From an uncultured Candidatus Saccharibacteria bacterium (GTDB lineage: Bacteria > Patescibacteriota > Minisyncoccia > Phycocordibacterales > Phycocordibacteraceae), in assembly GCA_964398815.1 (NCBI GenBank), contig CAYNNZ010000003.1:6676-70675 (forward strand): a stretch of 64,000 nt of DNA, given 5' to 3'. Positions 6,702-64,000 of the stretch are shown in pieces (within the stretch, counting starts at the first letter, position 1; every line of letters begins with the position of its first letter). Both the position numbers and the translations under genes were made by a program. The notes beneath the pieces are model-generated. The model ran no database searches. It saw nothing but the letters and a program-made list of their open reading frames with translations, and was not told the origin of the DNA.

Positions 6702-6858
6702 GTGCCTATCGCCCTTTTTTAAGGGCGGGCTAGTTTTTACGCTGTGTATTGAGCAGCGGAGACCCTTGAAATATGAATAGTTTGTCAACTCCGCAACAAG
6801 GTGTTGCGGAGGTAAGGTAGTGAACAAAGAAATCATTTCTTGTGTTCCGCCTATTCTT

Positions 6859-8320
<1,462 letters not shown>

Positions 8321-9394: not shown

Positions 9395-9919
9395 ATGAAG
9401 AACGCCCTCATTATCGGCGGACTATGCGTTGTCTTGCTTGCGCTCGGAGCCGCATTCTATTTCCATGCAACGATACCGTCTGAGAGCACTTCCGCGACGG
9501 CCAGCACAGAATCGCCCACAAAGGCAGAAGTGAAATTCAAAGTGCTAGGTGCAGGAGAGCACGCGAATACTGTCGTAGAACGAAAGAATTACGCCATCTA
9601 CGACCTTGCTGAGTACAACGAGATGTGGAAGCGCGCTCACAATGACGATGGCACGAAGGCTCCGTACGTTGATTTCAATACGAGTTATGTGATTGGGGTG
9701 TTCGCTGGGCGCCAACCTACCGCAGGGTATTCGATAGCAGTTACGCGCGTCACAGAAACTGGAGATGCGCGCACGGTTGCGGTGACCATCGCGGAGCCAG
9801 GTGATGGCTGCAATGTCATTGAAGAGGAAACGAGTCCATACCAATTCGTGGTGGTGCCATTCAGTGAAAGCATGGCGCTTGCGCATACAGACGTTCGTAG
9901 CAAGAAAGACTGCCGCTAG
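9395..9919 (+). CDS. Secreted/membrane-anchored protein with a PrcB_C-like domain
   Basis: N-terminal TM/signal anchor (LIIGGLCVVLLALGAAF). C-terminal segment YVIGVFAGRQPTAGYSIAVTRVTETGD…YQFVVVP fits the PrcB C-terminal (protease-complex) domain pattern. Confidence 0.5.
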   Translation: MKNALIIGGLCVVLLALGAAFYFHATIPSESTSATASTESPTKAEVKFKVLGAGEHANTVVERKNYAIYDLAEYNEMWKRAHNDDGTKAPYVDFNTSYVIGVFAGRQPTAGYSIAVTRVTETGDARTVAVTIAEPGDGCNVIEEETSPYQFVVVPFSESMALAHTDVRSKKDCR

Positions 9920-43165: not shown

Positions 43166-43380
43166 TTTTTTACGAAACGTAATGCAAGAAGCACTCACAA
43201 ATATTTTTTATAAAAACTTTTTTGAAAATAAATTTTGCAAAGTTATCCACACATTAAAAAAAATTCACACAAAAATAATTACAAAGCGTAATAATAAACA
43301 ACAGAACACATTCGCGCGAAATTTATTTAGCTTTGCGCGGGTGGGTCGACAATATCAGTCGTAGAAAACTATCTATACCT
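43166..43380 (+). promoter_or_regulatory. Extremely AT-rich (about 25% GC) intergenic island, putative strong promoter/UP-element region
   Basis: A/T-tract runs (aatattttttataaaaacttttttgaaaataaattttgcaaag…ttaaaaaaaattcacacaaaaataattacaaagcgtaataataaacaac) in an otherwise 55-58% GC window. Confidence 0.45.
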
Positions 43381-43494
43381 ATGGCAGCAAAGAAGAAGGC
43401 CGCAAAGAAGTCAACCAAGCGCAAGAGCGCAAAGAAGACGACCAAGAAGGCCGCAAAGAAGACCACCAAGCGCAAGTCCGCAAAGCGCAAATAG
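43381..43494 (+). CDS. 37-aa lysine/alanine-rich basic protein (histone H1/Hc1-like AKK repeats); not in the ORF track
   Basis: Translation: MAAKKKAAKKSTKRKSAKKTTKKAAKKTTKRKSAKRK*. Clean ATG to TAG, preceded by the AT-rich region and followed 20 nt later by a strong terminator. Confidence 0.6.
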   Translation: MAAKKKAAKKSTKRKSAKKTTKKAAKKTTKRKSAKRK

Positions 43495-43516
43495 TCTTCA
43501 ACAGACGAATGAAAAG

Positions 43517-43538
43517 ACTCCCGCAAGGGAGTTTTTTC
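43517..43538 (+). terminator. Rho-independent terminator of the small basic protein gene
   Basis: ACTCCC-GCAA-GGGAGT followed by TTTTTTC. Confidence 0.7.
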
Positions 43539-43610
43539 ATTGGCCCACACAGAAGATATCGTGGCTCCGTGCCTTCCAGAGGCCGTAAATAAGGGGTATA
43601 GTGCCTATCT

Positions 43611-48596: not shown

Positions 48597-48679
48597 TATG
48601 CAGCTTAGTTACGCACCATTTTTTTGCCCACTGTTCACAACCTATTTAAAACGAGACAAGATAGCCTTATACTCTCTTT

Positions 48680-49570
48680 ATGGATGAGCTAACCCTAGAC
48701 AACAAGAAGTATCTCTCGTCGAAGCAAGCGGCTAAGGTAACCGGCTACGCGAAGGATTATGTGGGTCAGCTCTGTCGCGAAGGGCGCATCGATGCCCGCC
48801 TTGTGGGACGCAATTGGTATGTCCTCGAATCATCAATACTCGAGCATCGATTCGGGGCGGAAGATAAGAAAGATCAGGAAGTAAAGGCTGAAATTAAGCC
48901 GCAGACTGCGTGGGAGACGCCTCGCTACATCGCAGAGCCGGCACAGACCGTACCTGAACTTTCGCCTAAACCTGCTGAATTCACCTCCGCGCCGCCAACT
49001 TCTACAGCATCCGTGACCCCAGAGGTACGCTCTACGCTTACTGATATGCAGTCAGCGTGGCAGGAATGGTTCCAAACCCAAGGAAATAAGGAGGAAAAAG
49101 CGCTTCCCGATGCCAGCGAAATGCTCCTTGAGGACCATGAGGAGCCTTCCTTTACCCAAGATGACGTACTAGAAACGTCTGAGGTGGCTGACCATTTCGT
49201 AGAAACAGAGGTAGAAGAGGAAGCTGAACCCATACATATAGCCCGCATTCGCCCGGAACCGCCCGTGATGAGGCGAGAAGCCTCGTACACGATGGGAGAG
49301 CCGCTACGCCTACAACGACGCGAGGAGGACTATCAGGAGGTCATTGAAGAGCGTCCTCAAAGACGTTCGGCAAGGCAGATTGCTTCAGTCGAACGCCCGC
49401 AGAAACGGAATTTGATACTGAACGCACTCCTTATATCTGCTGCAGGACTGGCAATAGTAATAGCCACCCTAGGCTCAGGAGCAATCGACGCATGGGTAGG
49501 TAGCGGGGGATGGGCAAATCCAGTGACTAACTTCCTCACAGGCACTAACGTCGTAGATATCAACAGGTAG
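48680..49570 (+). CDS. Single-pass membrane protein with an N-terminal excisionase/MerR-like HTH (HTH_17-like), an acidic disordered linker and a C-terminal TM
   Basis: N-terminus SSKQAAKVTGYAKDYVGQLCREGRIDARLVGRNWYV; Glu/Asp/Pro-rich middle; TM LILNALLISAAGLAIVIATLG near the C-terminus. The N-terminal module recurs at the start of the giant gene downstream. Confidence 0.5.
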   Translation: MDELTLDNKKYLSSKQAAKVTGYAKDYVGQLCREGRIDARLVGRNWYVLESSILEHRFGAEDKKDQEVKAEIKPQTAWETPRYIAEPAQTVPELSPKPAEFTSAPPTSTASVTPEVRSTLTDMQSAWQEWFQTQGNKEEKALPDASEMLLEDHEEPSFTQDDVLETSEVADHFVETEVEEEAEPIHIARIRPEPPVMRREASYTMGEPLRLQRREEDYQEVIEERPQRRSARQIASVERPQKRNLILNALLISAAGLAIVIATLGSGAIDAWVGSGGWANPVTNFLTGTNVVDINR

Positions 49571-50182
49571 GCTCTATCTCATCTCGTAGAGACGAGATAG
49601 AATAAATACCAGAGGGAGAAGGTGATTTGAAAACCATACAAAAAAGGCGCTGCAAGAATCATGCGGGGCTCTTATAGCTTGGTAGGGCAGTACGCTCTAT
49701 AAGGCGTTATAAGGCCTCTGGTGGAGTTTGGGTGTAGGAACTAAGAATTGTGCGGCACGGATTTCTACTCAGAGTCGATCAACGAACTCATACGGTAATG
49801 AAAGTTACCGCGATGAGGACCCGAACGCTCTGAATAACCCTCAGTGTTACTCGCAACAGAGGAAATAAAGTTCGCACAATATTCTTTACTGCATGAATGT
49901 ACGCACTTCGTTGTAATTCCTCATTTCTGCACACAATAAGCTGATTGCGGCCGCAGATGACAGCCACAGTAGCCCTGTAAAGGTCTTATACGCCATCAAA
50001 ATCGCATTACTGTACGTTGAGATGGGCGTAAGTGAACGTAGATGTGTCGATGAGCGAACGCACGTGAGTTTCGCTCTCGCGGTAGCTCTTAGAAAGATGA
50101 ATTGCAGATGAAAGTTATACCCAGCGAAATGCTTCGAAGCATCCGATATCTCTACTAAAATATAGAGAAGTCGGAACTTTAC

Positions 50183-53100
50183 ATGCCTCCCTCGCTCGAT
50201 ACAAACTTCATCCCAAATAGGGAAGCATCGGAGACATCCGGATACCATCAGGACTATCTCGCGCGCCTCTGCCGCGAAGGAAAGGTCGAAGGAGTTCAGG
50301 TCGGTCGCGCGTGGCACATCAATCGCCACTCGCTTCTCAAGTTCATCCGCGAGCAGGAGGTGCGCAAGCACGAGTTGGCTGAGCAGCTCTCTCGCACACG
50401 CAAGCAAACACTTGCTCAGGCTGCGCCGGTATTCACGGCGCCACTGGTCACGGTCGAAGCGCCTGCTCCTGCAACTCCTGTCGTCCCGTCGCCCTACTCT
50501 CCTACGCCCTCAGGTATTTGGTTCTACCGGAGTGCTACAGGAGTGGCGGTTTTACTGCTTATTTTGACGAACCTGCATCCGATAAGCACTCAATTTGCAC
50601 TCGATGGGGCGCTCAATCGCGAAGCTGCTCGGCTCGGAGGAGCGTTCGGCTTCGGTCATGACCTCGCGCTTGTGCCTGCCACTTCGACCGCGCAGATGTC
50701 GCCCCGAACAATGGCGTACGGCAACACGTCGCAGGCAATCTACCAGCAGTTCTATGTAAACGGCGCTTCGACTGAATACGTAAATGCGTACGTTGCGGCC
50801 TACGTTTCTTCCGCACTGAAAGACATCGTAGCGAAGGTTGGCGCGCAGGTGCTTGATGGTCGCGGCGTATCGCATGCAACGTCCGGCTCAACTAATTCGG
50901 TTGCGGTTGATCTCACGAACATCAGTGGTTCGACGATTACGAACTCGACGTTCAGTGGTTCGGTAAACGCGACGACCGTGAATGTTGCAACGCTTACGGT
51001 ATCTGGCACTGCTACATTTGCAACGACTTCGACCTCGGGTCCGGCAACCTTCACCGGAACGACCACTATCTCTGGTCCGCTGGTCATAGGCGGATTGAAT
51101 GGAGTCACCGAATGTCTGCATGTTGATGCGAATGGCGTTGTGTCCGGAACCGGAATCGATTGTGGAAGTGGCGGCGGCGGACTCACCGGACTTAAGGGGC
51201 AGTACTCATCGCTTCAGACCGGAGCGATTCAGACGTTTGCCACCTCGAGCGACACGAACATCGGACTCACTATCACGTCGGCCGGCGACGTGCATACCTT
51301 CACGCCGACCTGGATAGGAACGCTCGGCGTCAATCGGGGCGGTACTGGTCTTGCAACGCCGCCGACGTATGGCCAGTTATTACTCGGGAATGGCGGAGGC
51401 GGGTATGCACTCGCCGCAACATCAACGCTCGGCATTTCGTCCTCGGATATCACCGAGGGCTCGAAACTTTTTTATACTGACGGTCGCGTCGCTACGTACC
51501 TCAACACCGTCGCGAAGGAATACTTCTTTGCAACCACATCTGCCGATTTCTGGCAGAGTCAGCGTGACCTCTTCTCTACCTCTAGTGCGGCCTATTTCCT
51601 AGCTCAAAACCAGGGTAACGCGTTCTCCTCCACCTCCGCGTCTTACTTCCTCACGCAGAACCAAGGTGCCGCATTCTCAACCACGTCAGCGAATCACTGG
51701 CTGACTACCAAGTCGACTTCGAACCTCGCAGAGGGTTCGAATCTCTACTTCACCGACGCACGCGTGCAAACGTACCTCGATACGATTTCAAAGGGATACT
51801 TCTACTCCACCACCTCGAGCGACCACTGGCTGACTACCAAAACGACCGACAATCTTGCGCAGGGCTCGACGAACAAGTACTACAACGACTCGCTCGTAAA
51901 TACATTTGTTGGTGCATCCAGCACCATTGCGAAAACATTTACCACGAACGTCTTCACCGCACTCAACTCGTTCACGGGTGGTCTCGCAATCGGTGCTCTC
52001 AACGGTCCGCTTCAGGTAAACAATGGCGTCGTGTCGGCAACGACATCGATCGGAGTTCTCTACGGGGGTACGGGCTCGACGACACTCACTGGACTCCTAA
52101 AGGGTAACGGTACGAGCCAGGTACTCACTGCAGTTGCAGGTACTGACTATCAGGCCCCTATTACGCTCACCACGACAGGTACTTCTGGTGCGGCTACCTT
52201 TATAGGTAATACACTCAACATCCCGCAGTACTCGGGTACGACCTACACGGGTACCTACCCGGTACAGGTATCGGGCTCCGTCATCTCGCTTGCGTTCGGC
52301 ACCTCAACGAGTAACACCTGGGGTGGCACGCAGACCTTCACGAATACTCCGGTACTCGGAACGCTTTCGGGTCTTGTCGGCGCGAACAACGGCGCGCTTT
52401 ATCAGGTCGCAACGACGACGCTCTACGGTACTGGGGCAGGCGGCCAGGTTCTCACCTGGAATAACGGGGCACCGCAGTGGGTCGCGACGACTACTTATTC
52501 CGCTGGTTCCGGCATCTCAACGTCGTTCGCAGCAGGGAACCTGACTATTTCAAACACTGGCGTCCTCGCCATTGGCCCTACTGGACAGACACAGACTGGA
52601 ACCGTCACCGTCGCTTCCTCGACTGCAGGTACTGACTTCACAGTCACTGCATCCGCTGGAACCATTACGTTCAACCTCCCGACTGCCTCCGCATCGAATC
52701 GCGGTCTGCTTTCCTCAACGGACTGGACCACCTTCACCAATAAGCAGGCAGCACTCACGTTTACGTATCCGCTCGTGAATTCAGCGAACACCGTCTCGCT
52801 CGCGTTCGGTACGACCACCACAAATGCGTGGTCGTCGCTCCAGACGTTTAATGGTGGATTCATTGCGCAAGGCTCGACCACGATTGCGGGTGATCTCACA
52901 GTCTCGGGCAATGCAACTACCACGAACGCAACGACGACGAACCTCTATGTCTCAACGTCGATACGCGGCGGCGGTCTAACCTCCTGTTCGTTCTCGAGCG
53001 ATAAGCTGCTCTACAACTCGACCACCGGACAGTTCTCCTGCGGTGCTGACGCAGGTGCCGGTGGCGGCATTACCGCACTTAAGGGGCAGTATTCAAGCGC

Positions 53101-56100
53101 GCAGACGGGAAGCACACAGACGTTTGCAACATCATCTGACACCAACCTCGGTCTCACCATCACGAGCGCAGGCGACACGCATACCTTCACGCCGGTATGG
53201 ATTGGTACGCTCGCGGTAAACAGGGGAGGTACGGGCCAGAGCTCATTTACTTCCGGACAGCTTATCTATGGAAACGGGACGAACGCACTCACGAGCGTCG
53301 GCACCACCAGCGAAACACTCTCAGCAGAATTTGCGTTTAGCGGCACGCTCGGAGCGCTCGTCGGCGGCACTTCCGGCACACTCTCACTCGCAACCAACGG
53401 CGTAGCGTACAGCAAGCTCGCACAGGCAGCAGCGAATACAATTCTGGGGAATCCGACTGGCGCAACCGGAAACATCGTTGCGTTCGCCACCTCCTCGCTT
53501 GGCATCGCGCTTGCTGATACGACTGGCACGCTCACGGTCGCGCGCGGTGGCACGGGCACCACTACCGCGCCGGCAGGACAAATCATCTATGGCGGTGGGG
53601 CAGGCGTGTATCAGTCAGCTGCGACCGGTACCGTTGCTGCAGGCAGTGGTGTAAGCGTCACGGCGGGGCAGTCGGTCATCGGCGCTGGTCTCACTATCAC
53701 GAACACTGGCGTCCTCGCAGTCGGTCCAGTGGGCCAGACGACTAGCGGAACCGCGCTTTTCGCTACCTCAACTGCAGGCACCGATTTCACCATCACTGGC
53801 GCGGGCTCGACCATCACCTTCAATCTGCCGACCGCGTCAGGATCTGCACGTGGCCTCCTCTCATCTTCCGACTGGACCACCTTCAACAACAAGCAGGCAG
53901 CACTCACGTTTACGTATCCGCTCGTAAACACCGGTAATACGGTCAGCATCGCCTTCGGCACTACCACCTCGAACACGTGGGCAGGTACGCAAACCTTTAC
54001 GAACGCACCAGTACTCAGCTCGCTCTCGGGAGTCATCTATGGAAATAACGGAACGCTCGCAACGGCAGCAACCTCATCAATTGCAGTCTCTGGCGCGTTC
54101 AATTACTCAGGCACGCTCGGTACGTTTGTCGGCGGTACTAATGGCACGCTCTCGCTCGCAACCAACGGTGTCGCACTCACGAATCTCGCACAGATTGCCG
54201 CGAACTCAGTACTCGTAAACAACACTAGTGCAACGGGTAACGTAACGACAATCGCAACGAGTACATTCTTCGGTCTGGGGAATGGCGGCCAGGTCCTCAC
54301 CTGGAATAACGGGGTGCCGCAGTGGGTAGCAACGACAACGTACGCTGCAGGTACGGGTATCTCTACCTCATTCGCTGCTGGTCAGCTCACCATCACCAAC
54401 ACTGGCATTACGTCGCTTCAGCAGACAGGAGGCGGCTCCGCACAGACGGGTGCCATCACGTTCGCCACTTCGTCAGTTACGAATAATGGCGTGACGATTG
54501 GTCTCAACGTCACGAACGTCGGCGGCGCATTCACTTTCACACCCACGCGTTCTGGTACGCTCACTGCAGCAGGAGGCGGCACCGGCTTCGCATCCTACAC
54601 ACCGGGTGACATCCTCTATGCAGACACGGCAACGACATTCGCTCGCGCAGCGTCTTCGACGGACGGCTTCGTACTCGCGCTCGCAAATGGCAAGCCAACC
54701 TGGGTCGCGACCACAACGCTCTCCACCATCAGCGGCACGCTCGGTGTCACTAAGGGCGGCACGGGCCTTACCTCCATCGCTTCCTCCTCGCTCCTTATCG
54801 GTGGACCGGGTAATACTTTCATCGGTTACGCGACCTCATCGCTCGGCATCGCGCTCTCTGACACGACCGGAACACTCACGATTGTTCGTGGCGGTACCGG
54901 CACTACCACTGCTCCAGTGGGCCAGCTTATCTACGGAGGGGCAACCTCATACCAGAGCGTTGCAACCGGCACAGTCGCTTCAGGCTCAGGCATAAGCGTC
55001 ACAGCAGGGCAGGCAATCATCGGCTCTGGCCTCACCATCACCAACACCGGCCTCCTCTCACTTCAGCAGCTTGGTGGCGGTTCTGCACAGACGGGTGCAG
55101 TCACGTTCGCAACGTCGTCGCAGACGACTAACGGCCAGACAATCGGTCTCAACATCACCAACACCGCAGGTGCCTTCACTTTCGCACCTACCATCGGCGG
55201 CACCCTCACGGTCGCCGGTGGGGGAACCGGCCAGACCTCCTTCACCGCAGGGCAAATTCTCTATGGAAACGGCACGAACGGTCTCACTTCAGTGGGTACC
55301 ACATCCGAGACTCTTTCGTCTGAATTCTCATACTCAGGTACTCTCGGCGCACTCGTTGGCGGCTCTTCCGGAACGCTCTCCCTTGCCACCAACGGCGTTG
55401 CGCTTAACAAACTGGTTCAGGTTGGAGCAAACACTATCCTGGGCAACAACACGGGCGCGACCGGAAACGTCGTCGCATTCGCAACCTCGACGCTCTTTGG
55501 TACCGGCACGAACGGATTTGTTCTCGCTGTCGTAAACGGTATTCCGACCTGGACCGCCACCTCGTCCATCAATAACGGTGTCTCGTCGATTCAGCAGACC
55601 GGTGGTGGCACCGCACAGACCGGTGCGATTACATTCGCAACATCATCTGTCACGAACAACGGCGTCACTATCGGCCTCAACATCACGAACACCGGTAGCG
55701 CATTCACGTTCGCTCCGACACGCTCGGGTACGCTCACGGTGGCAGGTGGCGGCACCGGAGTCGGTTCCTTCACTGCAGGCCAGCTCATCTATGGAAACGG
55801 AACGAATAACCTCACTTCAGTAGCGACCACCACCATTGCGGTCTCGGGTGCCTTCAACTACTCAGGAACGCTTGGAGCGCTTGTGGGAGGCACAGGGGGC
55901 ACTCTCTCGCTTGCCACCAACGGCGTTGCACTCACGAACATCGCGCAGATTGCAGCCAACTCGATTCTTGCGAACGGTACCGGCGCGACTGGAAACGTCA
56001 CCGCGCTCGCAACCTCCTCCCTCGGTATCGCTCTTAGTGACACCACCGGCACCCTCCTAGCCGCTCGTGGCGGCACCGGCTTCGCCTCATACACTCCAGG

Positions 56101-59100
56101 CGACATTCTCTACGCAGACACCGCCGCATCACTTGCACGCGTTGCATCCTCAACTGACGGATTCATCCTCGGTCTCGCAAACGGCAAGCCAACCTGGGTC
56201 GCCACTACCACGCTTTCCTCAATCACCGGCACGCTCGTAATCGCGAAGGGAGGTACCGGCACCACCACGGCACCTTCTGGCCAAATCCTCTATGGCGGTG
56301 GGGCAGGCGTGTATCAGTCAGCTGCGACCGGTACCGTTGCTGCAGGCAGTGGTGTAAGCGTCACGGCGGGGCAGTCGATTATCGGTTCCGGTCTCACCAT
56401 CACGAACACGGGCGTCACTTCGATTCAGCAATCATCCGGTTCCGCGCAGACCGGTGCCATCACGCTTGCGACCTCATCAGCGGTCTCGTTCAACGGACTT
56501 ACGTTCACCAACTCCATCACTAACTCTTCGGGAACCTTCACCTTCACCCCGGCACTTTCTGGCACCCTCACGGTTGCAGGAGGCGGCACGGGTGTCTCGT
56601 CCTTCACCGCAGGTCAGCTCGTATATGGAAATGGCACGAACAACCTGACTTCAGTCGCAACCAGCTCACAGACTCTTTCTGCAGAATTCTCTGATACCGG
56701 CACCTTCGGTGCACTCGTTGGCGGCACCTCTGGAACCCTCTCGCTTGCCACCAACGGCGTTGCATACAGCAAACTCGCTCAGGCAGCCGCAAACACCATC
56801 CTCGGCAATCCGACTGGCGCGACCGGAAACCTCCAGGCATTCGCAACCTCATCGCTTGGTATCGCGCTTGCTGACACTACTGGAACGCTCTCGGTCGCTC
56901 GTGGCGGCACCGGTTCCACCACGCTCTCCGGCATCCTCCGTGGCAACGGCACTGGCCAAGTCAGTACCCTCATCGTCGGCTCCGGCCTCACCTTCGATGG
57001 CACCACGCTCGCAACCAGCGGCTCCGGCATCACCTCCATCGGTGCAGCAGGGCAGCTCCAGTCAGGGGGTACTCAGACCTTCGCAACCTCAACCGGCTCA
57101 TTCAACGGCCTCACGCTCGGCATGACGGTGGTCTCCTCTGCAAACACCCACACCTTCACGCCTTCCATCACCGGCACCCTCGGTGTTGCGGGAGGTGGCA
57201 CGGGCGCAGCATCCTTTACCGCAGGAGCTCTCGTGTATGGTGCAGGCACGGGTGCACTTCAGACAGTCGGCACCTCAACCGAAACCCTCTCCTCTGAATT
57301 TGCATACTCGGGAACACTCGGCGCGCTCGTGGGTGGTTCTTCCGGAACACTCTCACTCGCAACCAATGGTGTCGCACTCAACAAGCTCGTACAGGTTGGT
57401 GCAAACACCATCCTTGGCAACAACACTGGTGCGACCGGAAACGTCGTGGCGTTTGCAACCTCAACACTCTTTGGTACGGGAGTGGGTGGGCAGGTGCTGA
57501 CGTGGAGCAATGGGGTGCCGCGTTTTGTCGCGACGACGACCTTCTCTGCACCGCTCGCGTTCGCAAACGGCAATGTAACCATTACGCAGGCAGGTACGGG
57601 AGCAGACGGATACCTCTCGTCTACCGACTTCGCAACATTCAATAATAAAGTTTCTTCCACCTCGCTCTCCGCAACCTATCCGCTCGCATACAACAGCGCG
57701 ACCGGAGTCTTCACGACCGCGTTCGGCACCACGACCAGCAACACATGGGCTGGCACGCAGACGTTCACGAATACCATCAAGGTCGGCAGTCTCACCGGGT
57801 TCATTGCGGGTAATGCAGGTACGCTCTACCAGATCGCAAGCTCGTCTCTGAATCTCCCCACAAGCGCGCTCGCGAGCCAGAACGTAAGCCAGTTCACGAA
57901 CGATGCTGGGTATCTCACGCCGACATGGACCACGACTATTGATGCGGCGAACAACACCCTGAACAACGTAAACATGCTGACGTTCTACAACGGCGCTACA
58001 CGGCTCCTTAACGTCACCGACGTCTACAACAAGCAAGGACTCCGTATCGCAGATGGGTTCAGTCCAACCAATCGCGCCGACCTCTTCCCGTACTACCGCG
58101 ATGGGGGAGCGGCATTCCAGGCGGGCGATATCCTCGTCGCAAGCTCAAGCGGCGCCTACTATGCAGCAGCTACCTCAACACTTGGCTTTGAATCGGCGCT
58201 GACTTTCTCCTCGCCGCTTACACGAACCGGGAACACGGTAGGTATTCAGGTCGCAAACGGTTCACAGAACGGCTATCTCTCCTCGAGCGACTGGACGACC
58301 TTCAGTAGCAAGCTCTCTGCCTATGACGCATGGAGTCATCCGAGCGCAGGAGTTTCGGCGACAACAAGCGGCCTCATAATCACCGCGTCTTCGACTATCG
58401 GTAACGGTAGTCCAGCGGGCGGACTCACCATTGCCGGAAACTCGACTACGACCGGCATCGCAATCGCATCAGCCTTCGCTGGAAATGGAACGAATAATTC
58501 GCTCCTTACCCAGAACGGCATCGAGGTAGCGGTCATAGATACCAGTGCCACTACTATTGCGCTCGGTCTCTATAACAACTCATCAAGCGGGGCGAACAGT
58601 TCAGCGGTCGGTCTCAATAACAATGCTTCAGGCGGGTCATACAATAGCGCGTTCGGATTCGGTAATACTTCGTCTGGGTATCTTTCGTCCGCATTCGGCT
58701 CGCAGAACGTTGCCTCGAACAATACCTCCGGAGCATTCGGAGCAAGTAACAACGTCTCCGGAGTACAGGCATACGCGTTCGGCTATGCGATCACAAACGC
58801 CATCGACAACACGGTGATGATTGGTCCAAGCGATGCAGCGAAGGTAACTATTCGCAACACTGGAAAGGTCGGTATCGGAACCACCACACCGACCGCACAG
58901 CTGGAAGTCGAGAACGACACCAATGCTCTCGCACTCCTGCTGACCGTCCGCAACAATTACGGAACGACCGGATCTGCCGGCTCCCGTATCGGATTCGGCG
59001 TACACCGCGACATAGACCCAACAGCACTCGGCGCATCCATCGATGCCATCAACAAGGCTGGAGTTAATAATGGCGATATCGCACAGGGAGCAGACCTTGT

Positions 59101-62100
59101 ATTCAACACGAGCCCTGACGCGACGCTCGGTCTAGCGGAGCGCCTACGCATTACAAATGTGGGGGATGTGGGCGTAGGCACAAACACTCCAAGTGCGCGC
59201 CTCTCTGTGCAGGGTAATGGTCTCTTCTCAGGCAATCTTGCTGCCGCAGGACTCACGGCTACTGGCACCGTCGCTTTCACGAATCTCTCCTCGGGCCTCG
59301 TAGGCTCAAACAACGGAACGCTCTACTCGCTTGCCACCTCGACCAGTTTCGTAACGAGCGTTGTTGCTGGAACCGGCATTAATGTCTCGGGTGCGACTGG
59401 CGCAGTCACTATTTCAAATAGCGGACTACTTTCACTCCAGCAGTTGGGTGGCGGTTCTGCTCAGACCGGAGCAATCACGTTTGCCACTTCGTCTGTCACG
59501 AACAACGGCGTCACCATCGGCCTCAACATCACCAATTCCGCTGGTGCCTTCACGTTCACCCCAACGCGCTCGGGTACGCTCACGGTTGCAGGAGGGGGCA
59601 CGGGTGCAGCGTCATTCACTGCCGGACAAATTCTCTATGGTAATGGCACCAATGCACTCTCCTCAGTTGGCACAACGACGGAAACCCTCTCCTCTGAATT
59701 TGCATACTCCGGAACCCTCGGTGCACTCGTGGGTGGTTCTTCTGGCACACTCTCACTTGCCACCAACGGCGTCGCACTCAACAAGCTCGTTCAGGTAGGA
59801 GCAAACACCATTCTGGGCAACAACACTGGTGCGACCGGAAACGTCGTGGCGTTTGCAACCTCAACACTCTTTGGTACGGGAGTGGGTGGGCAGGTGCTCG
59901 CTATCGTCAACGGGGTACCGAACTGGGTTGCCACCTCCTCAATCAACAATGGGGTATCAAGCATCCAGCAGCTTGGTGGTGGCTCTGCTCAGACTGGTGC
60001 CATCACCTTCGCTACTTCGTCTGTCACGAACAACGGCGTGACGATTGGTCTCAACATCACGAACTCGGGCGGTGCCTTCACCTTCACTCCAACGCGCTCG
60101 GGTACGCTCACGGTCGCCGGTGGCGGTACTGGATTCGCTTCCTACACGCCTGGCGACATCCTCTACGCCGACACCGCAACCTCATTCGCAAAGGTCTCTT
60201 CAACCACTGATGGGTTTGTCCTCGCGCTCGCAAATGGCAAACCGACCTGGGTCGCATCCACGACGCTCTCGACCATCACCGGTACGCTCGGTGTCACCAA
60301 GGGCGGTACAGGCCTTACTTCAATCGCATCGTCCTCGCTCCTCATCGGTGGACCAGGTAATACCTTCATCGGTTATGCGACCTCATCGCTCGGCATCGCG
60401 CTTACCGACACCACTGGTACGCTCTCAATTGCTCGTGGCGGCACCGGCACCACTACTGCACCAGCAGGCCAAATCCTCTACGGCGGTGGGGCAGGTGTGT
60501 ATCAATCGGTCGCAACCGGCACAGTCGCAGGCGGTACGAACATCAGTGTGACCGCAGGGCAGTCGGTCATTGGTTCTGGACTCACCATCGGTATCACGGG
60601 GCAGATAGGAGTGGGGAATGGAGGCACCGGTGTTGGCAGTTTCACTGCTGGACAGATTCTCTACGGTAATGGTACGAACGCACTCACGTCTGTCGCGACG
60701 ACTTCCATCGCTGTCTCCGGCGCATTCAACTATTCAGGAACGCTTGGGGCTCTCGTAGGCGGCACAGGCGGCACCCTCTCCCTCGCAACTAACGGTGTCG
60801 CACTCACCAACATCGCGCAGATTGCAGCCAACTCGATTCTCGCGAATGGTACTGGCGCAACCGGCAACGTCACTGCACTCGCAACCTCTTCTCTCGGCAT
60901 CGCACTCACTGACACCACGGGCACTCTTGCCGTAAACCGTGGCGGCACTGGATTCGCCTCGTACACGCCGGGTGACCTGCTCTACGCAAATTCCGGAACG
61001 ACCTTCGCCAAGGTTTCTTCTTCCACTGATGGCTTCGTGCTTGGCCTCGCAAATGGCAAGCCGACCTGGGTCGCAACCTCTACTCTCGCCACCATCAGCG
61101 GCTCCCTTAATCTCGGTTCACAAGTAACGGGCACCCTTGGCGTTACTAACGGCGGCACCGGTTCCACCACGCTCTCCGGCATCCTCCGTGGCAACGGCAC
61201 TGGCCAAGTCAGTACCCTCATCGTCGGCTCCGGCCTCACCTTCGATGGCACCACGCTCGCAACCAGCGGCTCCGGCATCACCTCCATCGGTGCAGCAGGG
61301 CAGCTCCAGTCAGGGGGTACTCAGACCTTCGCAACCTCAACTGGCTCATTCAATGGACTCACGCTCGGCATGACCATCGTATCGAACTCGAATACGCACA
61401 CGTTTACTCCATCCATCTCCGGCACGCTCGGGGTCGCGGGCGGAGGAACCGGGGTAGGTACCTTCACTGGTGGTCAGCTTATTTATGGAAATGGCACAAA
61501 CGCTCTCACGTCTGTCGCAACCTCATCTCTCGCAGTCTCAGGCGCCTTCTCGTACTCAGGCACGCTCGGCGCTCTCGTTGGAGGAGCAGGTGGCACCCTC
61601 TCACTCGCCACCAACGGTGTTGCGCTCACGAACCTCGCTCAGATTGCAGCAAACACCATCCTCGCGAATCCGACGGGTGCAACTGGTAACGTGCAGGCAG
61701 TTGCAACCTCAACCCTCTACGGCACTGGGGCAGGCGGACAGGTGCTCACCTGGAATAACGGCGCACCGCAGTGGGTCGCAACCACCACATACTCGGGAGG
61801 AAGTGGTATCAGCACATCGTTTGCAGCAGGGAACCTGACCATCACGAACACTGGTCTCCTCTCACTCCAGCAGTTGGGTGGCGGTTCTGCACAGACCGGT
61901 GCAATCACGTTCGCAACGTCGTCGCAGACCACGAACGGTCAGACGATTGGGCTTAATATCACGAACACTGGCGGTGCCTTCACCTTCAGTCCAACCATCT
62001 CTGGTGTGCAGACCGTCGCAGGCGGCGGCACCGGCGTTGGTTCCTTCACCGCCGGACAGCTCATATACGGAAACGGAACGAACAATCTGACTTCAGTCGG

Positions 62101-64000
62101 CACCACGACGGAGACCCTCTCCTCTGAGTTCTCATACTCTGGCACCCTCGGTGCACTGGTCGGTGGTTCTTCCGGCACACTCTCACTCGCAACCAACGGT
62201 GTCGCACTCAACAAGCTCGTACAGGTCGGAGCAAACACCATTCTGGGCAACAACACGGGTGCAACTGGAAACGTGGTTGCCTTCGCAACTTCAACACTCT
62301 TCGGTACCGGCACTGGAGGACAGGTCCTCGCTATCTCAAACGGTGTTCCGACTTGGATTGCATCCACCACCTACGCAAACGGCTCAGGCATCTCGACCTC
62401 GTTCGCGGCAGGACAGCTCACGATTACAAACACTGGTGTCACTGCAGTAGGTCCGACCGGTCAATCAATTACTGGAGGTGTGGTGGTCGCATCCTCCACC
62501 TCAACGACTAACGGCATCACGTCGGCAATCACGGTTGTTGGCTCTGGCCAAAATCTGACCTTCACACCTTCGCAGTCCGGCACGCTCACAGTCGGAGGTG
62601 GGGGAACGGGACAGACGTCGCTTGCTTCAGGTCAGCTTATCTATGGTGCAGGCACCGCGGGTGTTCAGTCAGTTGCAACCTCATCTCTCGCAGTCTCAGG
62701 CGCCTTCTCGTACTCAGGCACGCTCGGTGCACTCGTCGGAGGAGCTGGCGGCACCCTCTCGCTTGCCACCAACGGTGTTGCGCTCACCAACATCGCGCAG
62801 ATTGCGGCGAACTCAGTCCTCGTGAACAACACCTCTGCTACGGGCAACGTGACTGCAATCGCCACCTCCACCTTCTTCGGAGTCGGCACCGGCGGTCAGG
62901 TACTCGCTATCGTCAACGGCGTACCGAACTGGGTTGCTACCTCCTCAATCAACAATGGGGTATCAAGCATCCAGCAGCTTGGTGGTGGCTCTGCTCAGAC
63001 GGGTGCCATCACGTTTGCCACTTCGTCCGCAACTCTGAACGGCCAAACTCATGGCCTCAACATCACGAACTCTGGCGCAGCCTTCACCTTCACACCGACG
63101 CTCTCCGGCACGCTTACGGTCGGAGGTGGCGGTACTGGATTCGCTTCATACACCCCAGGCGACATTCTTTACGCCGACACCGCAACCTCATTCGCAAAGG
63201 TCTCCTCAACGACCGACGGTTTCGTACTCGCTCTCGCAAATGGCAAACCAACCTGGGTCGCTTCCACGACACTCTCGACCATCACCGGCACGCTCGGCGT
63301 AACGAAGGGTGGTACGGGTCTCACTTCAATCGCATCTTCCTCACTCCTTATTGGTGGACCAGGCAACACGATCATCGGCTACGCGACCTCATCGCTCGGC
63401 ATCGCCCTTACCGACACCACTGGGACACTCGGTGCAACTCGCGGAGGCACCGGTCTTACGACCATTGCATCCTCCTCCATCCTCATTGGAGGAGCAGGGA
63501 ACACATGGCTCCAGTACGCAACGTCCTCCCTCGGTATTAATCTCTCTGACACGGTCGGAACACTCACGGTTGGTCGTGGCGGCACCGGCGTCGGTTCCTT
63601 CACCGCCGGCCAGCTCATCTATGGCAACGGCACCAACAACCTGACATCGGTCAGTACTTCATCTCTCGCCGTCTCTGGCGCCTTCTCGTACTCAGGCACC
63701 CTTGGCGCTCTCGTCGGAGGTTCTGGTGGCACCCTCTCCCTCGCCACCAACGGTGTTGCGCTCACGAATATCGCGCAAATCGCAGCGAATTCGGTACTTG
63801 TGAACAACACCAGCGGTACGGGCAACGTGACCGCAATCGCTACCTCCACATTCTTCGGCGCAGGAACCGGTGGCCAGGTGCTCACCTGGAACAACGGCGT
63901 ACCGCAATGGGTCGCAACCACCACCTACGCAAACGGCTCCGGCATCTCGACCGCGTTTGCTGCAGGGCAGTTGACCATCACCAACACCGGCCTCCTCTCA
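50183..64000 (+). CDS. 5' part (at least 4,606 codons, no stop in the window) of a giant repetitive Gly/Thr/Ser-rich surface protein gene: HTH-like N-terminus, one TM, modular repeats, central tail-fibre/YadA-head-like region
   Basis: Manual translation from ATG 50183 (in-frame TAA at 50156-50158 upstream) to base 64000 is open throughout. It is not in the ORF track because it lacks a stop inside the window. Recurrent modules include GTLTVAGGGTG..SFTAGQLIYGNGTN.LTSV, GTLGALVGGSSGTLSLATNGVALNKLVQVGANTILGNNTGATGNVVAFATS, GQVLTWNNG.PQWVATTTY and FASYTPGDILYADTAT…GKPTWVA. Confidence 0.8.
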   Translation, partial: MPPSLDTNFIPNREASETSGYHQDYLARLCREGKVEGVQVGRAWHINRHSLLKFIREQEVRKHELAEQLSRTRKQTLAQAAPVFTAPLVTVEAPAPATPVVPSPYSPTPSGIWFYRSATGVAVLLLILTNLHPISTQFALDGALNREAARLGGAFGFGHDLALVPATSTAQMSPRTMAYGNTSQAIYQQFYVNGASTEYVNAYVAAYVSSALKDIVAKVGAQVLDGRGVSHATSGSTNSVAVDLTNISGSTITNSTFSGSVNATTVNVATLTVSGTATFATTSTSGPATFTGTTTISGPLVIGGLNGVTECLHVDANGVVSGTGIDCGSGGGGLTGLKGQYSSLQTGAIQTFATSSDTNIGLTITSAGDVHTFTPTWIGTLGVNRGGTGLATPPTYGQLLLGNGGGGYALAATSTLGISSSDITEGSKLFYTDGRVATYLNTVAKEYFFATTSADFWQSQRDLFSTSSAAYFLAQNQGNAFSSTSASYFLTQNQGAAFSTTSANHWLTTKSTSNLAEGSNLYFTDARVQTYLDTISKGYFYSTTSSDHWLTTKTTDNLAQGSTNKYYNDSLVNTFVGASSTIAKTFTTNVFTALNSFTGGLAIGALNGPLQVNNGVVSATTSIGVLYGGTGSTTLTGLLKGNGTSQVLTAVAGTDYQAPITLTTTGTSGAATFIGNTLNIPQYSGTTYTGTYPVQVSGSVISLAFGTSTSNTWGGTQTFTNTPVLGTLSGLVGANNGALYQVATTTLYGTGAGGQVLTWNNGAPQWVATTTYSAGSGISTSFAAGNLTISNTGVLAIGPTGQTQTGTVTVASSTAGTDFTVTASAGTITFNLPTASASNRGLLSSTDWTTFTNKQAALTFTYPLVNSANTVSLAFGTTTTNAWSSLQTFNGGFIAQGSTTIAGDLTVSGNATTTNATTTNLYVSTSIRGGGLTSCSFSSDKLLYNSTTGQFSCGADAGAGGGITALKGQYSSAQTGSTQTFATSSDTNLGLTITSAGDTHTFTPVWIGTLAVNRGGTGQSSFTSGQLIYGNGTNALTSVGTTSETLSAEFAFSGTLGALVGGTSGTLSLATNGVAYSKLAQAAANTILGNPTGATGNIVAFATSSLGIALADTTGTLTVARGGTGTTTAPAGQIIYGGGAGVYQSAATGTVAAGSGVSVTAGQSVIGAGLTITNTGVLAVGPVGQTTSGTALFATSTAGTDFTITGAGSTITFNLPTASGSARGLLSSSDWTTFNNKQAALTFTYPLVNTGNTVSIAFGTTTSNTWAGTQTFTNAPVLSSLSGVIYGNNGTLATAATSSIAVSGAFNYSGTLGTFVGGTNGTLSLATNGVALTNLAQIAANSVLVNNTSATGNVTTIATSTFFGLGNGGQVLTWNNGVPQWVATTTYAAGTGISTSFAAGQLTITNTGITSLQQTGGGSAQTGAITFATSSVTNNGVTIGLNVTNVGGAFTFTPTRSGTLTAAGGGTGFASYTPGDILYADTATTFARAASSTDGFVLALANGKPTWVATTTLSTISGTLGVTKGGTGLTSIASSSLLIGGPGNTFIGYATSSLGIALSDTTGTLTIVRGGTGTTTAPVGQLIYGGATSYQSVATGTVASGSGISVTAGQAIIGSGLTITNTGLLSLQQLGGGSAQTGAVTFATSSQTTNGQTIGLNITNTAGAFTFAPTIGGTLTVAGGGTGQTSFTAGQILYGNGTNGLTSVGTTSETLSSEFSYSGTLGALVGGSSGTLSLATNGVALNKLVQVGANTILGNNTGATGNVVAFATSTLFGTGTNGFVLAVVNGIPTWTATSSINNGVSSIQQTGGGTAQTGAITFATSSVTNNGVTIGLNITNTGSAFTFAPTRSGTLTVAGGGTGVGSFTAGQLIYGNGTNNLTSVATTTIAVSGAFNYSGTLGALVGGTGGTLSLATNGVALTNIAQIAANSILANGTGATGNVTALATSSLGIALSDTTGTLLAARGGTGFASYTPGDILYADTAASLARVASSTDGFILGLANGKPTWVATTTLSSITGTLVIAKGGTGTTTAPSGQILYGGGAGVYQSAATGTVAAGSGVSVTAGQSIIGSGLTITNTGVTSIQQSSGSAQTGAITLATSSAVSFNGLTFTNSITNSSGTFTFTPALSGTLTVAGGGTGVSSFTAGQLVYGNGTNNLTSVATSSQTLSAEFSDTGTFGALVGGTSGTLSLATNGVAYSKLAQAAANTILGNPTGATGNLQAFATSSLGIALADTTGTLSVARGGTGSTTLSGILRGNGTGQVSTLIVGSGLTFDGTTLATSGSGITSIGAAGQLQSGGTQTFATSTGSFNGLTLGMTVVSSANTHTFTPSITGTLGVAGGGTGAASFTAGALVYGAGTGALQTVGTSTETLSSEFAYSGTLGALVGGSSGTLSLATNGVALNKLVQVGANTILGNNTGATGNVVAFATSTLFGTGVGGQVLTWSNGVPRFVATTTFSAPLAFANGNVTITQAGTGADGYLSSTDFATFNNKVSSTSLSATYPLAYNSATGVFTTAFGTTTSNTWAGTQTFTNTIKVGSLTGFIAGNAGTLYQIASSSLNLPTSALASQNVSQFTNDAGYLTPTWTTTIDAANNTLNNVNMLTFYNGATRLLNVTDVYNKQGLRIADGFSPTNRADLFPYYRDGGAAFQAGDILVASSSGAYYAAATSTLGFESALTFSSPLTRTGNTVGIQVANGSQNGYLSSSDWTTFSSKLSAYDAWSHPSAGVSATTSGLIITASSTIGNGSPAGGLTIAGNSTTTGIAIASAFAGNGTNNSLLTQNGIEVAVIDTSATTIALGLYNNSSSGANSSAVGLNNNASGGSYNSAFGFGNTSSGYLSSAFGSQNVASNNTSGAFGASNNVSGVQAYAFGYAITNAIDNTVMIGPSDAAKVTIRNTGKVGIGTTTPTAQLEVENDTNALALLLTVRNNYGTTGSAGSRIGFGVHRDIDPTALGASIDAINKAGVNNGDIAQGADLVFNTSPDATLGLAERLRITNVGDVGVGTNTPSARLSVQGNGLFSGNLAAAGLTATGTVAFTNLSSGLVGSNNGTLYSLATSTSFVTSVVAGTGINVSGATGAVTISNSGLLSLQQLGGGSAQTGAITFATSSVTNNGVTIGLNITNSAGAFTFTPTRSGTLTVAGGGTGAASFTAGQILYGNGTNALSSVGTTTETLSSEFAYSGTLGALVGGSSGTLSLATNGVALNKLVQVGANTILGNNTGATGNVVAFATSTLFGTGVGGQVLAIVNGVPNWVATSSINNGVSSIQQLGGGSAQTGAITFATSSVTNNGVTIGLNITNSGGAFTFTPTRSGTLTVAGGGTGFASYTPGDILYADTATSFAKVSSTTDGFVLALANGKPTWVASTTLSTITGTLGVTKGGTGLTSIASSSLLIGGPGNTFIGYATSSLGIALTDTTGTLSIARGGTGTTTAPAGQILYGGGAGVYQSVATGTVAGGTNISVTAGQSVIGSGLTIGITGQIGVGNGGTGVGSFTAGQILYGNGTNALTSVATTSIAVSGAFNYSGTLGALVGGTGGTLSLATNGVALTNIAQIAANSILANGTGATGNVTALATSSLGIALTDTTGTLAVNRGGTGFASYTPGDLLYANSGTTFAKVSSSTDGFVLGLANGKPTWVATSTLATISGSLNLGSQVTGTLGVTNGGTGSTTLSGILRGNGTGQVSTLIVGSGLTFDGTTLATSGSGITSIGAAGQLQSGGTQTFATSTGSFNGLTLGMTIVSNSNTHTFTPSISGTLGVAGGGTGVGTFTGGQLIYGNGTNALTSVATSSLAVSGAFSYSGTLGALVGGAGGTLSLATNGVALTNLAQIAANTILANPTGATGNVQAVATSTLYGTGAGGQVLTWNNGAPQWVATTTYSGGSGISTSFAAGNLTITNTGLLSLQQLGGGSAQTGAITFATSSQTTNGQTIGLNITNTGGAFTFSPTISGVQTVAGGGTGVGSFTAGQLIYGNGTNNLTSVGTTTETLSSEFSYSGTLGALVGGSSGTLSLATNGVALNKLVQVGANTILGNNTGATGNVVAFATSTLFGTGTGGQVLAISNGVPTWIASTTYANGSGISTSFAAGQLTITNTGVTAVGPTGQSITGGVVVASSTSTTNGITSAITVVGSGQNLTFTPSQSGTLTVGGGGTGQTSLASGQLIYGAGTAGVQSVATSSLAVSGAFSYSGTLGALVGGAGGTLSLATNGVALTNIAQIAANSVLVNNTSATGNVTAIATSTFFGVGTGGQVLAIVNGVPNWVATSSINNGVSSIQQLGGGSAQTGAITFATSSATLNGQTHGLNITNSGAAFTFTPTLSGTLTVGGGGTGFASYTPGDILYADTATSFAKVSSTTDGFVLALANGKPTWVASTTLSTITGTLGVTKGGTGLTSIASSSLLIGGPGNTIIGYATSSLGIALTDTTGTLGATRGGTGLTTIASSSILIGGAGNTWLQYATSSLGINLSDTVGTLTVGRGGTGVGSFTAGQLIYGNGTNNLTSVSTSSLAVSGAFSYSGTLGALVGGSGGTLSLATNGVALTNIAQIAANSVLVNNTSGTGNVTAIATSTFFGAGTGGQVLTWNNGVPQWVATTTYANGSGISTAFAAGQLTITNTGLLS
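53586..53674 (+). repeat. 89-nt perfect repeat (copy 2 at 56289-56377)
   Basis: tctatggcggtggggcaggcgtgtatcagtcagctgcgaccggtaccgttgctgcaggcagtggtgtaagcgtcacggcggggcagtcg is identical in both copies. Confidence 0.8.
56903..57093 (+). repeat. 191-nt perfect intragenic direct repeat, copy 1 (copy 2 at 61151-61341)
   Basis: Base-for-base identical stretch ggcggcaccggttccaccacgctctccggc…ttcgcaacctcaac at offset 4,248 nt; it encodes an identical about 63-aa module (GGTGSTTLSGILRGNGTGQVSTLIVGSGLTFDGTTLATSGSGITSIGAAGQLQSGGTQTFATST). Confidence 0.85.
57416..57498 (+). repeat. 83-nt perfect repeat (copy 2 at 59816-59898) embedded in about 220 nt of about 90% identity
   Basis: ggcaacaacactggtgcgaccggaaacgtcgtggcgtttgcaacctcaacactctttggtacgggagtgggtgggcaggtgct is identical at an offset of exactly 2,400 nt. 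Confidence 0.85.
61151..61341 (+). repeat. 191-nt perfect intragenic direct repeat, copy 2
   Basis: See copy 1 (56903-57093). Confidence 0.85.

Follow-up and report, generated by a model that had tools for sequence, protein, structure and literature searches.

A stretch of 64,000 nucleotides of contig CAYNNZ010000003.1 (referred to here as the window), from a bacterium of the Paceibacteria, carries two consecutive plus-strand genes, a small one encoding a membrane protein of 296 aa and a giant one that is still open at the window end, and the analysis reported here deals with the DNA-binding-type domain that stands at the N terminus of both products. Both open reading frames (ORFs) lie where the first-pass annotation had placed them, and both translations contain the shared pattern that it had quoted, i.e., [ST]-G-Y-x-x-D-Y-[LV]-x-x-L-C-R-E-G-[KR]-[IV]-x4-V-G-R-x-W-[HY]-[IV]. 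The reading frame of the giant gene is open from position 50159, and the ATG at 50183 is the sole start codon in its first 40 codons. The genes and the parts of their proteins are as follows, with helix-turn-helix abbreviated as HTH, transmembrane as TM, and AlphaFold2 as AF2.

48680..49570, plus strand: small gene, 296 aa, encoding an HTH, a long acidic linker, and a C-terminal TM helix; conserved Paceibacteria family
48686..48853, plus strand: winged HTH of the small protein, residues 3-58 (Pfam HTH_17, AF2, Foldseek)
49019..49096, plus strand: conserved cytoplasmic helix of the small protein, residues 114-139, with invariant DMQSAWxEWF (alignment, AF2)
49412..49474, plus strand: TM helix of the small protein, residues 245-265 (AF2 helix, hydropathy, K/R-rich N-flank)
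50183..64000, plus strand: giant gene, >4606 aa, still open at the window end
50198..50356, plus strand: winged HTH module of the giant protein, residues 6-58 (BLASTP, HTH_17, hhalign, AF2, Foldseek)
50324..50422, plus strand: long conserved helix right after the HTH of the giant protein, residues 48-80 (AF2 predicted local distance difference test [pLDDT] 95-98; QxxRKxExAxxLSxxRExEY in orthologues)
50513..50596, plus strand: TM helix (signal anchor) of the giant protein, residues 111-138 (hydropathy, AF2 helix, orthologues)

The two modules are homologous, and their similarity is far beyond chance. Pairwise alignment of the N termini with BLASTP yielded 31% identity over 62 aa (E 2e-13), and a phmmer comparison of each N terminus with all six-frame ORFs of the window matched only the other one (E 9e-9 and 2.4e-10; next E >1). 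Alignment of the two family alignments with hhalign (probability 97.8%, E 8e-13, 50 columns) likewise bears out the resemblance that had been noticed in the sequence. The specialized module has the signature [ST]GYxxDY[LIV]xxLxRxG[KR]...GRxW.

With respect to fold class, the structural models and near-threshold sequence scores identify both modules as winged HTHs of the excisionase/BldC/MerR type, which agrees with the earlier assignment to the HTH_17/Xis-MerR group. The Pfam family HTH_17 (PF12728; cut-off 27 bits) scores 26.8 bits for residues 11-55 of the small protein and 22.1 bits for residues 14-58 of the giant protein; the giant orthologues of loci L060 (31.4 bits), L061 (30.2), L042 (27.5), and L055 (27.3) lie above the cut-off, and precomputed PF12728 matches exist for many members of the small family. 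Scores for TIGR01764 are 17.8 bits (small) and 18.8 bits (giant) versus a cut-off of 28.8. In both AF2 models the winged-helix fold (strand, HTH, two-strand wing, C-terminal helix) is predicted with a pLDDT of >90. The order in the small protein is strand-strand-helix-turn-helix-strand-strand-helix (residues 3-58, pLDDT 91-97), and the model of the giant protein has the same fold at residues 9-47, running straight into the helix 48-80. The best Foldseek match for both models was Xis of mycobacteriophage Pukovnik, with a template-modeling score to the target of 0.67-0.73 and a root mean square deviation of 1.6-1.7 Å in three of four chain alignments (4.2 Å for 4j2n_C versus the giant model). 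It was followed by BldC-DNA complexes (top matches 0.64-0.76), TraN, Tn916 Xis, RdfS, RacA-DNA (0.52-0.58), and MerR-family regulators. The titles of the PDB entries of the closest relatives (Xis, BldC, TraN, RdfS, RacA) name DNA-bound complexes, a dsDNA-binding protein, or excisionases. When the module profile was compared with PDB sequences, the dsDNA-binding protein TraN was the sole meaningful match (E 6e-4), and the full profile of the small family gave only a low-complexity match to a designed coiled coil. Membership in the MerR family in the narrow sense is not indicated: no Pfam match to MerR or MerR_1 was obtained, the giant protein has no effector domain, and the promoter spacer of the small gene measures 17 nt versus the 19-20 bp of that family.

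Conservation of the small protein is concentrated at its N terminus, where residues 1-59 are almost invariant among homologues. In 106 members of the family T21, G22, Y23, D26, Y27, G29, Q30, R33, G35, V42, G43, R44, W46, and Y47 are invariant, i.e., positions of the recognition helix and the wing. A conserved patch (W78/Y83/P92) lies between the HTH and the DMQSAWxEWF helix, after which follows a variable acidic region with low AF2 confidence. Its TM helix is located close to the C terminus, and the tail beyond it comprises about 30 residues with one invariant Gly. The first-pass annotation had placed a single TM segment behind the module in both proteins; the single TM helix holds for both, but in the small protein it is not adjacent to the HTH and lies about 190 residues further downstream. 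The label "anti-sigma-like" for the small protein is not supported, because profile searches detected neither an anti-sigma domain nor any other Pfam or NCBIfam family in it and only about 30 residues are extracellular. The hallmarks of membrane anti-sigma factors, i.e., a zf-HC2, RsgI_N, or RskA-type domain and a nearby gene for an extracytoplasmic function sigma factor, were not found, and no sigma-factor gene is present among the called neighbors.

In the giant protein the helix 48-80 is a MerR/RacA-like extension that possibly serves oligomerization. The subsequent TM helix is moderately hydrophobic in this organism (mean Kyte-Doolittle value 1.54 over 19 residues, 1.96 over 15 residues), is clear in the orthologues, and was modeled as a helix. 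Thr, Gly, Ala, and Ser account for 57% of the ectodomain and charged residues for about 4%. No Pfam or PHROG match was found in the ectodomain, and Pfam and PHROGs searches of seven giant orthologues recovered only HTH_17, besides one spurious sub-threshold match in an orthologue. DNA tandem repeats with a period of ≤500 are absent from the giant gene. The GC skew of the window changes from positive to clearly negative (-0.07 to -0.16, window 50000-64000) exactly at this gene, with the coding strand unchanged; the turn at 50 kb is attributed to the Thr/Gly/Ala/Ser-rich composition of the ectodomain rather than to a replication landmark.

Both proteins are predicted to be single-pass membrane proteins with the N terminus and the HTH in the cytoplasm, and about 30 residues of the small protein would be located outside. 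This topology was deduced from hydropathy, flanking charges, and AF2 helices. Neither protein has an N-terminal hydrophobic signal sequence, since the first 60 or so residues form the folded HTH, which fits the previous statement that the module occupies the extreme N terminus without a signal peptide. The N-flank of the TM helix is rich in K and R in 70 members of the small family and about 65 of the giant family. Within the 15 residues on either side of the TM helix, K and R typically number 4-6 on the N-side versus 0-2 on the C-side in the small family, and 1-4 versus 0-2 in the giants, so that the positive-inside rule places the HTH module on the cytoplasmic side, as had been proposed.

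The pair is ancient and syntenic in Paceibacteria: gatB is followed by the small gene, a long AT-rich spacer, and the giant gene. A search with the small protein detected 1,498 homologues at E ≤1e-3, and among the 120 listed the coverage extended over the full length. Those with a taxon label are nearly all from Parcubacteria, Paceibacterota, or Patescibacteria, and almost all go under the name "hypothetical" (one is a "helix-turn-helix domain-containing protein"). Relatives are present in 228 genomes of a scan with one genome per species. Distant relatives share the gene order Wzy_C, MurB, SecA, Obg, GatB, small gene, spacer, giant gene. When a hidden Markov model of the module was run against six-frame ORFs of 81 distinct Paceibacteria loci, the small gene proved to be followed in 73 by a large ORF whose N terminus carries the module. 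Of the eight exceptions, seven are contigs with <1.1 kb of downstream sequence, and the eighth is considered below. Contigs typically stop inside the large gene. The spacer measures 260-1000 bp across the loci (median, 547 bp), and in the ten loci that were checked its GC content amounts to 33-45% versus 49-57% for the whole locus. Variations on the pair comprise tandem duplications of the module in large proteins (L001:12682-13110, L070:11169-11540) and, in two loci, one more gene with the module, the third in a row (L028:19980-20819, L061:13576-14598).

HTH_17 is typical of the excisionases of prophages and integrative and conjugative elements (ICEs), and the window scores fall just under the Pfam cut-off, so a chance likeness or a functionless excisionase fragment, fused by misannotation or recent insertion, had to be considered. 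The recurrence of the module at the same position in 73 loci and in 3,165 representative proteins, together with its near invariance in 106 small-protein sequences, refutes such an origin, which we regard as extremely improbable; moreover, gene calling in the inspected neighborhoods returned neither an integrase nor any other gene of a mobile element.

The pair also belongs to a large superfamily that is specific to Patescibacteria and in which one to three modules usually precede a TM helix. A word-indexed search with the giant N terminus returned one relative only; hence, an exhaustive phmmer search was conducted with residues 1-80 of the giant protein against 1.84 billion representatives (clustered at 50% identity), which yielded about 3,165 representative proteins at E ≤1e-3 and 530 at E ≤1e-10. 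Among the best 150 of the 3,165, the module is N-terminal in all, starting at residue 3-35, and occurs as one copy in 47, two in 102, and three in 1. Their source names are "hypothetical," "helix-turn-helix domain-containing protein," or "excisionase family DNA binding protein," from Parcubacteria, Paceibacterota, and Kaiserbacteria. The first-pass annotation had asked whether all proteins with the module are giant or surface proteins. A hydrophobic helix follows the module in 128 of these 150; a long ectodomain (up to 7,275 aa) is present in 66, and 62 have <80 residues beyond the TM helix. Ectodomain sizes in the superfamily range from about 30 to about 7,000 aa, the outer part being either a stub (about 30-80 aa) or a fibre. 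The pair noticed in a single genome is real, but the scope had been underestimated, as it is part of a lineage-wide syntenic superfamily. In double-HTH lineages, a short protein with two modules occupies the same gatB-adjacent position, ahead of a module-bearing protein of 2,770 aa. In locus L086 (10001-11671), only 52 bp separate the gene for a 310-aa protein of the double-HTH/TM type from a subsequent fibre-like ORF without HTH or TM helix; this arrangement may represent a giant split into anchor and fibre or an assembly or frameshift artefact.

The noncoding DNA around the two genes contains several conserved elements, among them two gene-specific palindromes:

48645..48673, plus strand: small-gene promoter, -35 TTTAAA (48645-48650), 17-nt spacer, -10 TATACT (48668-48673) (promoter scan)
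48653..48664, plus strand: motif A copy GAGACAAGATAG in the -35/-10 spacer, candidate operator (motif scan of loci)
49571..50182, no strand: AT-rich spacer of 612 bp between the small and giant genes (ORF limits)
49574..49600, no strand: palindrome of two inverted motif A copies, CTATCTCATCTC gta GAGACGAGATAG, beginning 4 nt past the small-gene stop; kept in L087
50115..50123, plus strand: TTATACCCA, lineage variant of the upstream box TTATCC[A/C]CA, about 68 nt before the giant start codon
50142..50175, no strand: motif B inverted repeat TCCGATATCTCTA / TAGAGAAGTCGGA, candidate operator, 11/13 complementary, enclosing a -10-like TAAAAT (50156-50161)

The promoter layout of the small gene is kept in about 70 loci, and its mRNA is probably leaderless, since the ATG follows 7 nt past the -10 box. 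Motif counts were taken over 1.17 Mb of loci. Motif A (GAGAC[GA]AGA[TA]A) occurs 92 times and flanks the small gene in 80 of these: 26 copies are located in the 17-nt spacer between its -35 and -10 boxes, and 54 are inverted within about 80 nt past its stop codon, where they form the palindrome. The arms vary independently at the R/Y position (15 C/A versus 11 C/G, with a regular expression that missed half of the loci). The palindrome at 49574-49600 could be either an operator or an RNA hairpin. Motif B has the core TCCGA...TCGGA, which in many lineages is followed by TATCCGAC abutting the giant ATG, and 39 of the 40 occurrences of its composite form ATTCGGnTATCCGA are at giant starts. Both motifs are palindromic and both overlap core promoter elements. 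Comparison of the window with locus L087, the small proteins of which are 68-71% identical, showed near identity over about 85 nt ahead of the giant ATG, in contrast to most of the spacer; a mid-spacer block at 49870-49905 (TTCGCACAATATT...ATGAATGTRCGCA) is also kept between the two. The upstream box TTATCC[A/C]CA corresponds to the DnaA-box consensus; its 100 occurrences in the loci are almost exclusively at the promoters of the giant gene and of a gene for a small basic protein, and it also precedes the small HTH gene in double-HTH lineages (L085, L086).

Overall, the combination of the module, its predicted topology, and the palindromes leads us to favor, tentatively and at somewhat short of even confidence, the reading that the modules make both products membrane-tethered DNA-binding proteins which act on their own locus; binding, the pairing of modules with sites, and the regulatory outcome are all inferred. 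We base DNA binding on four observations: the PDB titles of the closest solved relatives name DNA-bound complexes, a dsDNA-binding protein, or excisionases; the recognition-helix and wing positions are invariant; there are two module types, with differing recognition helices, and two gene-specific palindromes; and the locus has no other HTH gene, the only HTH proteins encoded in it being those with the modules. The recognition helices differ at corresponding positions (VGQL in the small protein, LARL in the giant), which fits two different DNA sites. At first look, recognition-helix residues of the giants (RLCREGK versus RL[AVT]R[AS]GK) also seemed to be associated with motif B variants (TCGGATATCCGAC versus CGTTCATCCGAC), an association that is confounded by ancestry. 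The near-invariant HTH of the small protein would recognize motif A (GAGACGAGATAG) in its own promoter spacer and in the palindrome past its stop codon, and the HTH of the giant type would recognize motif B (TCCGA...TCGGA), the arms of which lie on either side of the giant gene's -10 box. Provided that the modules can bind DNA while they are tethered, the membrane pool of both proteins could feed back on the transcription of the locus, and the locus might be held at the membrane, where the enormous protein without a signal peptide is inserted. The pairing suggests that the production of a surface fibre is wired directly to DNA.

In a bolder version of this model, the HTH of the giant protein, which is the first part to leave the ribosome, would bind the palindrome at its own -10 box, so that the nascent chain pins the gene to the membrane and stops initiation, with the small paralogue setting or relieving the feedback. 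We consider this scenario doubtful, but if true, the surface protein would be a cis-acting, membrane-tethered repressor of its own gene with a built-in transertion anchor.

Several observations weigh against control of the locus by the modules. The support for DNA binding is indirect, coming from conserved residues and gene-specific palindromes. Foldseek probabilities were 0.9-1.0, but the length and predominant disorder of the queries made for weak E-values (0.01-0.6). The structural matches also comprise CbpM (3ucs) and DafA (9dvi), and the best, albeit weak, NCBIfam match is MamR, which implies that the fold can also serve protein binding. By our own count from the sequences, the net charge of each module is only about +2. 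The eighth exception mentioned above, L023:10850-13006 ("Parcubacteria group bacterium 21-54-25"), has a large ORF with a TM helix and an ectodomain but without the HTH module; it is the sole locus with enough sequence where the module is missing, and the module must be dispensable at least there. As for the DNA elements, motif A past the stop codon could simply be an RNA hairpin, and the double-HTH lineages lack motif A. With about 29 bp between its half-sites, motif B is not a compact dimer operator. Finally, the presence of the DnaA-like box at the promoter of the unrelated small basic protein indicates that other factors act on these promoters.

A different explanation is that the module is a cytoplasmic docking domain whose HTH fold links the surface fibre and the small partner to a conserved protein of the cytoplasm (e.g., a cytoskeletal, division, SecA, or chaperone component) or to one another, with the DNA elements as ordinary promoter or terminator signals read by other factors. 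CbpM, which contacts CbpA, is one example of such use of the fold. Near invariance of the small-protein module would suit an interface with a conserved partner, the operon adjoins secA, and the low net charge and the matches to CbpM, DafA, and MamR point in the same direction. A precedent for an HTH that binds a protein is RodZ, which interacts with MreB. Like the giants, RodZ starts with an HTH in the cytoplasm, which is followed by a juxtamembrane segment, a TM helix (about residue 110-130), and a long extracytoplasmic part, a layout mirrored here with the TM helix at about residue 110-140. The likeness is limited to the overall layout, since RodZ itself contains an XRE-type HTH (HTH_25) and a C-terminal DUF4115 domain, neither of which was detected at E ≤10 in the small protein and the giant N terminus or at E ≤0.1 in the rest of the giant. 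Docking is nevertheless rather unlikely in our view: the closest structural and sequence relatives (Xis, BldC, TraN, RdfS, RacA) are linked to DNA by their PDB titles, the only HTH proteins in the locus are these, no candidate partner covaries in the neighborhood, and it is difficult to account for gene-specific palindromes over -10 boxes unless a dedicated factor binds DNA there. The palindromes favor a regulator over a docking domain, with the module proteins as their putative binders.

The RacA-DNA complex among the structural matches raises the further possibility that the modules mainly tether the chromosome to the envelope, for segregation or organization in very small cells, rather than regulate their own genes. 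RacA of Bacillus subtilis likewise has a MerR-like winged HTH followed by a long helix and tethers DNA to the envelope, but it is soluble, lacks a TM helix, reaches the membrane via DivIVA, and shows no sequence-level match to the modules. Consistent with such an anchor are the long helix after the HTH in the giants, the small-protein linker of about 190 residues, which could reach into the nucleoid, the tandem modules in many members, and the occurrence of the small protein beside housekeeping genes in at least 228 species genomes. However, conserved candidate sites were found only at the two genes' own promoters (in the scanned loci, as distinct from whole genomes), a giant extracellular fibre has no evident need of a chromosome anchor, and the giant of L023 does without the module. 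Chromosome anchoring as the main role is accordingly judged unlikely, and action on their own locus is retained as the preferred role of the modules.

Membrane-bound regulators such as ToxR, CadC, TcpP, and BcrR have the predicted topology of the Paceibacteria pair, i.e., a cytoplasmic N-terminal DNA-binding domain, a single TM helix with the N terminus inside, and an extracytoplasmic part, and they are presumed to bind DNA while tethered. They differ from the proteins described here by their OmpR/PhoB- or XRE-type domain, whereas neither Trans_reg_C nor XRE gave a Pfam match in the small or giant protein, and by a sensor ectodomain of ordinary size instead of a stub of about 30 residues or a giant fibre. 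Excisionases, BldC, and TraN (HTH_17, TIGR01764) belong to the same fold class, with near-threshold scores, and TraN contains two tandem modules like many members of the superfamily. Those proteins are small and soluble and originate from phages, ICEs, plasmids, and developmental regulons, whereas here the module is the N terminus of a membrane protein or giant fibre and has a signature of its own (GYxxDY...LCRxGK). The giant surface proteins of Omnitrophota, the Candidate Phyla Radiation (CPR), and others are similarly long, repetitive, and low in charge, and their genes also break assemblies. A preprint on Omnitrophota and other predatory bacteria describes giants with N-terminal signal peptides, C39 or S8 peptidase domains, or dockerin-type architectures and reports no cytoplasmic HTH. 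The Paceibacteria pair is defined by the N-terminal signature, a downstream TM helix, and the synteny of gatB, small gene, spacer, and large gene, all of which are present in the window. In the literature searched, outside subscription journals, we found no account of this gene pair or of a giant surface protein in which an excisionase-type HTH is joined to a TM helix, in accordance with the initial impression that the pairing had not been described.

Paceibacteria and other CPR lineages represent a huge uncultured bacterial diversity with tiny cells, few recognizable regulators, and mostly unannotated envelope proteins. The current study defines for them a lineage-wide superfamily with a DNA-binding-type domain on the cytoplasmic end of surface proteins, including giants of 5,000-7,000 aa, and one gene pair, the chromosomal position of which is fixed, has conserved palindromes of its own at the promoters. 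Should the modules bind to them, they would provide a direct physical link from envelope fibres to gene control or nucleoid position in organisms seemingly without conventional signaling; if they dock proteins, they would point to a cytoplasmic partner of the CPR cell surface.

The AT-rich spacer was also considered as a replication origin, as many orthologous spacers contain the DnaA-box consensus TTATCCACA. This candidate was rejected: the box occurs singly at each promoter and keeps a constant distance (about 68 nt) to the giant start, another box is located at the basic-protein promoter, the spacer of the window has no box within one mismatch, and the GC-skew turn coincides with the start of the giant gene. 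A noncoding RNA is not indicated in the spacer either, with no Rfam match at the gathering score or at E ≤1 and no tRNA or transfer-messenger RNA. The small basic protein is encoded by a short plus-strand ORF at 43381-43494, which lies under the 60- and 150-aa cut-offs of the ORF listings. Its product of 37 aa is rich in Lys and Ala (MAAKKKAAKKSTKRKSAKKTTKKAAKKTTKRKSAKRK) and possibly histone H1-like. About 50 loci have kept the gene, always between MurB and SecA; in the window it has the box TTATCCACA at 43243-43251, a conserved leader hairpin (GAACACATTCGCGCG...CGCGGGTGGGTCGAC), and a terminator-like GC-rich hairpin with a T-run at 43516-43540.

With respect to translation initiation, the 3' tail of the 16S rRNA (6856-8314; ...GGAAGCTGGTCGTGGAACATATCCAATCGGAATCG) lacks the canonical CCUCC anti-Shine-Dalgarno sequence, and no Shine-Dalgarno motif was found at the starts of about 27 plus-strand genes of the window (e.g., 9395, 13510, 28471, 43611, and 48680). 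A Shine-Dalgarno-like function of the giant leader (GGATAT versus the 16S tail AUAUCC) is unlikely, as other genes of the window have no such motif. Several genes, among them those at 9395, 13510, 28471, and 48680, have a -10-like box (TATACT, TAGAAT, TATAGT) 6-12 nt before the ATG, which together with the lack of Shine-Dalgarno motifs suggests that leaderless mRNAs are common in this organism.

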